64,000 nucleotides of DNA from NCBI GenBank assembly GCA_963750165.1, contig CAVVPN010000003.1, positions 2,144,001 to 2,208,000 of the forward strand, written 5' to 3'. Both the position numbers and the translations under genes were made by a program. Under the pieces are notes generated by a model that was given only the letters and a program-made list of their open reading frames with translations, ran no database searches and was not told where the DNA came from. This DNA is from an uncultured Gemmataceae bacterium. GTDB lineage: Bacteria; Planctomycetota; Planctomycetia; Gemmatales; Gemmataceae. Position 1 is the stretch's first letter. Every line of letters begins with the position of its first letter. Shown piece after piece: positions 54,942 through 56,087 of the stretch.

Positions 54942-56087
54942 ATGTACGCAACCACGCAAACGCTGCGGCTCGCAGGGCTGGGAGGCCTGGTCCTGAGTCT
55001 CACCCTGACCGTGAGCCCGCCCGCCTACGGCCAGCGCATCACGCTCCGGCCGATTTCCACTTCTTACATGCCGATGAACCGCACGCTGAGCAACTATTAC
55101 CAGTACTCCGCCGTGCCGGGCAACCCGTTCAGCGCGCAAAACCAGCTGAACAACAACATCAACAACTACTACCAGAACCAGTCCAACCAGCAGCTGAACA
55201 CCACCACCGGCATCATCGGCAACAACCTCAGCCCGCTGGTGAGCGGCGGCTACGGTGGCGGTTACGGTGGCGGTTACGGTGGCATGGGCGGTTACGGCAT
55301 GGGTGGCATGGGTGGCTATGGCATGGGTGGCATGGGTGGCATGGGTGGCATGGGTGGCTACGGCGGCATGGGCGGTATGATGGGCGGCATGGGTGGCTAC
55401 GGTGGCATGGGCGGCATGATGGGTGGCATGGGTGGCATGGGTGGCATGGGCGGCATGATGGGTGGCATGGGCGGCATGGGTGGCATGGGCGGTATGATGG
55501 GCGGCATGGGTGGCATGGGCGGCATGATGGGTGGCATGGGCGGCATGGGTGGCATGGGCGGCATGGGCGGCATGGGCGGCTTCCCGTCGTTGAGCGGCCG
55601 CGGCATGGGCCAGATGGGCGGTGCCATGGGCCAGATGATGCAGTACGGCATGGGCGGCATGGGCGGTATGGGCATGGGCGGTATGGGCATGGGTGGCATG
55701 GGCATGGGCGGCATGGGCATGGGCGGCATGGGCATGGGCGGCATGGGCATGATGAACCCCATGATGATGGGCATGGGCGGCATGGGCATGGGCGGCATGG
55801 GCATGGGTGGCATGGGCATGGGCGGCATGGGCATGATGAACCCCATGATGATGGGCATGGGCGGCATGGGCATGGGCGGCATGGGCATGGGTGGCATGGG
55901 CATGGGCGGCATGGGCATGATGAACCCCATGATGATGGGTATGGGTGGCATGGGCATGGGCGGCTACGGCATGGGTGGCATGGGCATGGGTGGCATGGGC
56001 ATGGGTGGCATGGGCATGGGCGGTATGGGCATGGGCGGCATGGGCAATGTGGGCGGCGGTGGTGTGGTTCTGGGCCGCGGCTTCTAA
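54942..56087 (+). CDS. Secreted low-complexity Gly/Met-rich protein with Asn/Gln/Tyr-rich N-domain (381 aa)
   Basis: GAGG RBS; signal peptide ending PAYG-Q; third-position variation in Gly codons supports this frame; own promoter and terminator. Confidence 0.88.
   Translation: MYATTQTLRLAGLGGLVLSLTLTVSPPAYGQRITLRPISTSYMPMNRTLSNYYQYSAVPGNPFSAQNQLNNNINNYYQNQSNQQLNTTTGIIGNNLSPLVSGGYGGGYGGGYGGMGGYGMGGMGGYGMGGMGGMGGMGGYGGMGGMMGGMGGYGGMGGMMGGMGGMGGMGGMMGGMGGMGGMGGMMGGMGGMGGMMGGMGGMGGMGGMGGMGGFPSLSGRGMGQMGGAMGQMMQYGMGGMGGMGMGGMGMGGMGMGGMGMGGMGMGGMGMMNPMMMGMGGMGMGGMGMGGMGMGGMGMMNPMMMGMGGMGMGGMGMGGMGMGGMGMMNPMMMGMGGMGMGGYGMGGMGMGGMGMGGMGMGGMGMGGMGNVGGGGVVLGRGF

Follow-up and report, generated by a model that had tools for sequence, protein, structure and literature searches.

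The window, a 64,000-nucleotide stretch from the 9.6-Mb genome of an uncultured Gemmataceae bacterium (here G000), carries an open reading frame at 54942-56087 (+) that encodes 381 aa of extreme composition. DUF1559, BBP7 and TIGR03000 families in the genome mark the host as a planctomycete. A first-pass annotation had put its methionines at about 95-100 and reported that Asp, Glu, Lys, His, Cys and Trp were missing, and both statements stand: the product contains 98 Met (about 25.7%), 160 Gly (42%) and 17 Tyr, and none of those six residues. With cleavage of the signal peptide as predicted, the mature chain is 351 aa long and retains 97 Met. The Met fraction is the highest among the 7190 called ORFs of the genome (mean 1.7%). 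Just 4 of these ORFs reach at least 250 aa without Asp or Glu, and they are identical to the four members of the family described below.

The annotated frame scored +0.44 per codon under a codon model of the genome, and the remaining five frames scored -0.13 to -0.83. Three other readings, a His/Arg-rich frame at 54782-56182 and Pro/Met and Cys/Pro frames on the reverse strand, were ruled out by codon score and by stops there in homologues. The motif MMNPMMM starts at 55749, 55833 and 55917, the 84-bp spacing reported earlier, and TRF resolved an 84-bp unit in 3.8 copies with 96% matches. The three 28-aa units differ from each other only synonymously, at 1-3 positions per pair. Exact repeat counts are provisional, given the frameshift-level error rate of the assembly. 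Sequencing runs contained only 4-6% of the words, and read coverage over the repeat part stems from unrelated GGM tails (e.g., GroEL-like ends) and was left out of the evidence. The concern that the repeat might be an artefact with no homologs was not borne out, as independent in-frame homologues were found and the units diverge only at synonymous sites. Its ribosome-binding site and terminator, its dN/dS of less than 1 and the intact frame of homologues from other samples show that the ORF is a real gene and no artefact.

Table 1. Features of the window that bear on the Met-rich gene and its family
Feature	Position	Strand	Basis
Remnant of a lost copy (final codons, stop codon, terminator), right behind an aldose epimerase gene	6281..6402	+	88% identity over 122 nt
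Sensor histidine kinase, upstream on the same strand, probably regulating the window gene	51505..53055	+	HisKA + HATPase_c
Sigma-54-dependent response regulator, NtrC type	53091..54548	+	Response_reg, Sigma54_activat, HTH_8
Sigma-54-type -24/-12 promoter-like site, 149 nt past the regulator	54697..54712	+	11/12 consensus positions
Shine-Dalgarno-like GAGGA	54931..54935	+	sequence ahead of ATG
Predicted Sec signal peptide, residues 1-30, ending A-Y-G ahead of an invariant Gln	54942..55031	+	hydropathy, alignment, helix 3-23
Conserved N-domain, core NRTLSNY...TGIxGxNL (residues 46-96), predicted amphipathic helix 65-88	55032..55244	+	invariant columns, dN/dS, AF2
First low-complexity block, where (GGY)n passes gradually into (GGM)n	55245..55580	+	composition, TRF
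Conserved linker F-x-x-(L/F)-x-G-R with invariant Arg220	55581..55652	+	Arg in 6/6 full-length members
Second low-complexity block, (GGMGM)n including three MMNPMMM units of 28 aa	55653..56042	+	composition, TRF
C-terminal VVLGRGF + stop	56043..56087	+	Gly-Phe end common to 6/6 complete members
Intrinsic terminator-like hairpin + U tract	56130..56173	+	-39.6 kcal/mol, z -7.0, 0/200 shuffles as stable

The signal peptide proposed earlier agrees with a hydropathy peak at residue 10, with the alignment and with a predicted helix at residues 3-23. A Gln directly follows the predicted cleavage site (window 55032-55034) in nearly all members and in the sister proteins described below; an N-terminal Gln could cyclise to pyroglutamate. 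The segment that follows, with 14 Asn, 7 Gln and 6 Tyr in 70 residues, had been called prion-like, which overstates the case: its N+Q density is at best 22 per 80 residues, against the 30 or more in 80 that we take to be the rule for such domains, and AlphaFold2 (AF2) placed a low-confidence helix at residues 65-88 (block pLDDT about 48-61). With seven sequences as input, AF2 predicted coil outside the two helices, at a mean pLDDT of 55 for the N-part and 44 over the full length, and gave no fold for the tail. Modelling of the N-domain as a three-copy complex scored 0.01 and carries no weight in either direction. The tail (about 270-285 aa) is 54% Gly and 34% Met, its only charged residues are two Arg, and a hydrophobic residue recurs every 1-3 positions in 104 of 110 gaps. 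The linker Arg is one of just 1-2 charged residues per tail in all six full-length members. Searches with the protein returned 0 families from Pfam (E 0.1) and NCBIfam, 0 matches from a PDB sequence search and no usable match in the ESM Atlas.

Regulatory context and gene neighbourhood

The promoter-like site between the response regulator and the Met-rich gene follows the sigma-54 pattern of GG at -24 and GC at -12 (excerpts of PMC1569441), scored here against a general consensus. Sites that match at 11 of 12 positions number 103 genome-wide, and about 0.0025 are expected per 450 nt; sigma-70-like sites numbered 2 against 0.8 expected. The genome encodes rpoN. No sigma-54-type site was found upstream of the other three paralogues. 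A sigma-54-like site lies within 500 nt of 6 of the 21 activators in the genome. The nearest paralogues of the kinase and regulator (54% and 71%) have one directly behind them, followed by a DUF1559 prepilin-type gene; the other activator-adjacent sites precede a PEP-CTERM gene, a probable frameshifted PEP-CTERM gene and two other genes. Apart from the window site, an exported target was confirmed by Pfam at 2 of 5 sites. From the adjacency we infer that the window gene is controlled by the neighbouring sigma-54 two-component pair.

This arrangement recalls the PEP-CTERM genes under sigma-54 and PrsK-PrsR, which are described in excerpts of PMC1569441 as single-gene units with a long upstream region containing a sigma-54 site, an NtrC-type pair and an exported product. 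In contrast to those, the window protein has no PEP-TM-basic sorting signal, with no Pfam match and no hydrophobic C-terminal helix (KD15 maximum 0.9 past residue 40), and the kinase and regulator stay below the PrsK and PrsR cut-offs (108 bits versus 300 and 403 versus 503). The kinase is also below the cut-offs of ZraS and AtoS, and the regulator below those of NtrC and ZraR; a ZraS-like kinase domain is among the top matches of the kinase. Two candidate exported proteins behind such sites are of note. At L022:3184-4266 (-), an exported protein behind a sigma-54 site and activator has a PEP-CTERM-like end in another frame, and at L023:3353-4807 (+) a sigma-54-like site precedes another protein poor in acidic residues and rich in Gly, Tyr and Asn, which has a C-terminal TIGR03000 domain in addition to a signal peptide.

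Among 29 ORFs around the copies in this genome and 81 around relatives (cut-offs 1e-6 and 1e-8; most relatives covered over +/-1.5 kb), we found no Cu/Ag ATPase, multicopper oxidase, Msr or MsrP-type enzyme. The metal- or redox-related exceptions near the family were a CDF transporter about 7 kb from the gene in genome G004 and an RND system beside the remnant only. Right behind the remnant, a second sigma-54-like site (10/12, window 6575-6590) precedes an unannotated ORF and this RND efflux set, together at window 6654-16000; the set comprises a membrane-fusion protein, an AcrB-type pump and outer-membrane factors. A thioredoxin-like gene lies 10 kb upstream of the window gene, and none of the five PF00174 molybdo-oxidoreductase genes of the genome comes closer than about 250 kb to a family gene. 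Downstream, window 56275-57000 holds a transposase-like fragment followed by an element of about 250 nt with dozens of genome copies at 75-94% identity.

Paralogues, homologues and the frame breaks on contig C4

The genome carries three further full paralogues and one remnant. In paralogue P0002 (C3:1249764-1248895), the signal peptide, N-domain and linker are retained, as is the Gly-Phe end; the tail, however, is built of Gly, Ser, Tyr and Phe and contains 1% Met. The other two are Met-rich, lie in tandem on contig C4 and terminate in (V/A)VLGRGF, and three other complete members end in PAGF or GGGF. The first-pass annotation had taken VVLGRGF to be conserved in the remnant paralogue. The match is present, but it belongs to a 122-nt, 88%-identical stretch of gene end, 3' UTR and terminator, with no start codon or N-domain found at 6281-6402; since the remnant is a copy of the last codons, 3' UTR and terminator, it is not independent evidence of protein conservation.

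Homology searches recovered the paralogues and, outside this genome, two complete homologues with MNPMMMG repeats (P0006, 26% Met; P0008, 17% Met) and three fragments. P0007 (E 7.5e-6) was dismissed as an unrelated repeat protein. None of 60 relatives and none of 251 family genomes yielded the N-domain, a phmmer-type search with it gave 0 matches, and two scans of genome contigs returned none. Soil contigs from one DNA run and two RNA libraries span the N-domain in frame; these are relatives' contigs and no proof of transcription. Gln31 and the N-domain core are invariant in all seven aligned members, and the N-domain evolves at dN/dS 0.20-0.56 between distant members (51-53 codons). The tails of six members vary from 1 to 34% Met and from 25 to 58% Gly, and none contains D, E, K, H or C. 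The constants of the family are the signal peptide, an N-domain of about 50 aa, the Arg-bearing linker, the Gly-Phe end and an acid-free tail; Met is not among them.

Both C4 paralogues show a 2-nt loss in a run of GC dinucleotides. Two soil contigs that cross the break site have no net indel, and both copies have dN/dS below 1 on either side of the break wherever differences exist. When the genome was compared with itself, the 2.43 Mb of coding DNA covered by paralogues showed 214 apparent frameshift sites, about 9 per 100 kb, a tally that takes in real pseudogenes and IS elements. These sites often fall in GC-dinucleotide or homopolymer runs, and deletions recur in GC-dinucleotide contexts, an identical one in three IS copies. 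The C4 breaks are therefore probably assembly errors. On the other side, one synonymous change common to the two copies introduces a stop into the shifted frame, which counts toward a possible real shared lesion. A programmed frameshift is unlikely, as there are just four A's, the other members are in frame and dN/dS is below 1 on both sides; the recurrent deletions in GC-dinucleotide contexts weaken it further. Given the frequency of apparent frameshifts, split or hidden ORFs reported from this genome call for caution. It is extremely unlikely that the window gene itself is a non-functional repeat expansion or assembly artefact: the frameshift frequency, the two broken paralogues and the unconfirmed repeat counts speak for this, but the synonymous-only unit differences, dN/dS, independent homologues, in-frame soil contigs, ribosome-binding site and terminator have already largely refuted it. 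As a separate observation, six-base palindromes are strongly depleted genome-wide (GTCGAC at 1% of expectation), which suggests restriction-site avoidance.

A Gly-rich slot behind an ABC-ATPase gene

The P0002 gene faces an ABC-ATPase gene, and a Gly/Met gene in G004 faces a 79% orthologue of the same ATPase gene, as do genes in two more genera. We therefore picked loci by the ABC-ATPase gene alone, which is present in 74 of 120 genomes, and read the 29 best non-self loci; locus L114 (same-strand, no real member) was dropped ahead of the counts. At 11 of these 29 loci, from 10 genera, a convergent Gly-rich, acid-poor ORF ends 70-239 nt behind the ABC-ATPase orthologue, compared with 0 of 29 upstream and 5 of 1500 random genes of G000. 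The ORF was absent at the other 18, four of which had less than 500 nt of sequence there. Conservation of the slot thus spans at least 10 genera within a single planctomycete family, with the ABC-ATPase gene as its positional marker. Through P0002 the window family belongs to this class, sharing the signal peptide followed by Gln, the acid-poor Gly tail and the convergent position. In their last 100 residues, 8 of the 11 slot ORFs have no Met, and the remaining three have 1, 11 and 38. A Met-free paralogue in the slot and Met-free syntenic counterparts imply that the window gene is likely a derived, recent Met-enriched copy. At L099, L107, L112, L115, L116 and L123 the ABC-ATPase orthologue often stops within about 400 nt of the contig end, and at three of the six a Gly-rich ORF continues past that end; assembly from short reads probably fails within slot genes and so undercounts the family.

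The design extends beyond the slot. A DNA pattern for (GMGGM)3 matched in 16 of 251 family genomes, mostly in stand-alone proteins of the same design with other N-domains and fixed ends, and a sister profile of Gly-rich proteins was found in 25 of 251. Met makes up at most 2% of the tail in 13 of 21 sister proteins, 7% in two and 17-52% in six, in a set drawn in part with a Met-biased pattern and with frameshifted row L036 left out. One sister genus has Phe-rich and Met-rich forms behind one C-terminal motif. Many sister tails close with a G-K-G or N-K-G motif that holds their sole basic residues, and in five genomes (L056-L059, L061) the sister gene and a BBP7-type outer-membrane beta-barrel gene are divergently oriented. 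Across genera the N-domains do not align (hhalign probability 1%), apart from one weak profile match (E 5e-5 in a small set), and common descent would follow from position and design rather than from sequence. Met-rich tails recur in several genera; this recurrence and the Met-rich metagenome homologues suggest some selection for Met itself, which may add redox control or scavenging on top of the role common to the family.

A candidate envelope or matrix material

We consider the window protein, at roughly even odds (about 0.5), to be a Gly-spacer/hydrophobic-sticker protein that is exported and self-associates into a flexible gel- or elastomer-like envelope or matrix material. An uncharged, Gly-rich chain, predicted to be disordered, would leave by the Sec route and be cleaved before Gln31, and the predicted helical N-domain would serve as an oligomerisation or anchoring cap. 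The tail of about 270 aa would then coacervate through Met-Met and Met-aromatic contacts, with Gly between the stickers, and the lone linker Arg and the Gly-Phe end may act as partner, processing or sorting signals. In the tails of relatives and positional counterparts, Met interchanges with Phe, Tyr and Leu. Because relatives often have one of these in place of Met, a sticky flexible material is likelier than a metal sponge. Of the roles offered in the first-pass annotation, a condensate or matrix protein would best fit the signal peptide, the sticker spacing, the lack of a tail fold and the interchange of stickers. The window copy would be a Met-enriched duplicate that is turned on conditionally by the adjacent sigma-54 pair; its Met would add sensitivity to oxidation but be unnecessary for the basic role of the family. 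A point against a gel or elastomer is that the usual cross-links of elastomers would need Lys or Cys, both of which the tail lacks.

By composition and prediction, and with no claim of homology, the protein would work most like abductin and the Met-sticker domains of Pbp1. Abductin of the scallop hinge is described in excerpts of PMC9999432 as a 116-aa protein with a signal peptide, a short N-domain and a random-coil elastomer of GGFGGMGGGX repeats (58% Gly). The two would share export, a random-coil repeat with more than 50% Gly and central Met/Phe, and little Pro; abductin is an animal protein with proposed Cys/Lys/Tyr cross-links, whereas the window protein is bacterial, has a mature chain of 351 aa with 34% Met in the tail and contains neither Lys nor Cys. 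In the Met-rich low-complexity domain of Pbp1, according to excerpts of PMC8394241, Tyr or Phe can replace Met as the sticker, and self-association of the disordered region is sensitive to oxidation, as could hold here. Both Pbp1/ataxin-2 and TDP-43 differ in being cytoplasmic eukaryotic RNA-binding proteins with folded domains, whereas the window protein is bacterial, stand-alone and predicted to be exported. The chemistry of (GGM)n and the equivalence of Met and Phe are also seen in the GGM tails of GroEL and the thermosome and in the GGF region of Sis1 (excerpts of PMC6821194), but there the repeat is a short tail on a folded cytoplasmic chaperone, and here it makes up most of the predicted exported protein.

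The Met-specific roles raised in the first-pass annotation lose ground as the core function of the family, given the 1% Met tail of P0002 and the eight Met-free counterparts of eleven, and the lack of any Cu/Ag-resistance or Msr gene among the 29 and 81 neighbouring ORFs weakens them further; a secondary Met-specific role for the window copy is possible. An unlikely one is a sacrificial oxidant sink on the model of MrpX, in which HOCl or H2O2 would oxidise the exported Met and a periplasmic Msr would restore it. The 97 Met of the mature chain, an inducible-looking promoter of its own and the five PF00174 genes would suit it, and MrpX of Azospira suillum likewise has a signal peptide and about 20-25% Met (excerpts of PMC4436054); however, none of the PF00174 genes is near the family, and the soluble MrpX is a small protein with 44% charged residues whose gene shares a transcript with yedYZ (MsrP system) under SigF, whereas the window protein has two charged tail residues and its gene has neither yedYZ/msrPQ alongside nor such an operon. 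Quite unlikely is a Cu(I)/Ag(I) sponge with thioether-only MxM/MxxM sites as an extracytoplasmic buffer for soft metal ions. That Met alone can bind Cu(I) is well established, the Met motifs are dense, and the kinase of the adjacent two-component system has its ZraS-like match, so that the protein would likely bind metal in vitro, which would be no proof of a sponge role. The periplasmic Ag sponge SilE (PMC5008109) is exported and disordered, has Met motifs and is encoded near a two-component system, but SilE needs motifs that contain both His and Met and sits in an efflux operon, whereas the window protein has 0 His, no Cys, no Cu/Ag resistance locus of the SilE/PcoE type among the scanned neighbours and Met-free relatives, and its regulators fall short of ZraS/ZraR.

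About as improbable is an ATP-independent periplasmic holdase or hydrophobic sieve whose GGM tracts act on unfolded substrates like the tail of GroEL. Regions rich in GGM or GGF are enriched in chaperones and act on substrates (excerpts of PMC6821194), the idea would account for the interchange of Met and Phe too, and the GGT share of Gly codons (24%) is nearer that of groEL (21%) than that of long ORFs (8.6%); but codon choice in the repeats is amplified by duplication, neither Pfam nor NCBIfam finds a folded chaperone domain, and with zero net solubilising charge a free holdase would be unlikely to stay soluble. It is very unlikely that the protein is a store of reduced sulfur or methionine, even at 9.3% sulfur by mass with no Cys: export would risk loss of the store, orthologous forms are Met-free, and there is no sulfur-assimilation cluster nearby, with one homoserine dehydrogenase near one relative. 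Equally improbable is a functional amyloid nucleated by the N/Q/Y domain in the manner of curli. The Asn, Gln and Tyr content and predicted export of a Gly-rich chain are compatible with it, but the N+Q density and the helix and coil predicted by AF2 at low confidence lend no support, and we found no curlin or other Pfam match at E 0.1, no repeated beta-arch units or beta-solenoid, and no adjoining secretion or nucleator genes.

The flexible-material reading has a bolder and rather doubtful extension at the level of the family: an abductin-like exported hydrogel from the syntenic gene, its sticker freely swapped among Phe, Leu, Tyr and Met, in which the Met-rich duplicates are redox-switchable (Met oxidation would melt the gel and Msr reset it) and one of them is under a dedicated sigma-54 two-component switch. 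TDP-43 reportedly also has a Met-rich low-complexity domain and is grouped with Pbp1/ataxin-2. If true, the hydrogel would be a bacterial, extracellular counterpart of the Pbp1/TDP-43 redox condensates.

Searches of Pfam, NCBIfam, PDB and the open-access literature found no family model, solved structure or paper on such planctomycete Gly/Met proteins, and the description of the N-domain family, of its synteny link and of its sigma-54 context comes from the present analysis. The extreme Met count by itself is no ground for inferring metal or oxidant binding. The family is nearly invisible to homology search, yet gene position reveals its slot in at least 10 genera. A single genome with both Met-rich and Met-free paralogues offers a natural comparison of what Met contributes to a Gly-rich disordered polymer, which could separate redox switching from plain stickiness. 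Together, these data put the window family forward as a possible protein constituent of the envelope or matrix in planctomycetes.
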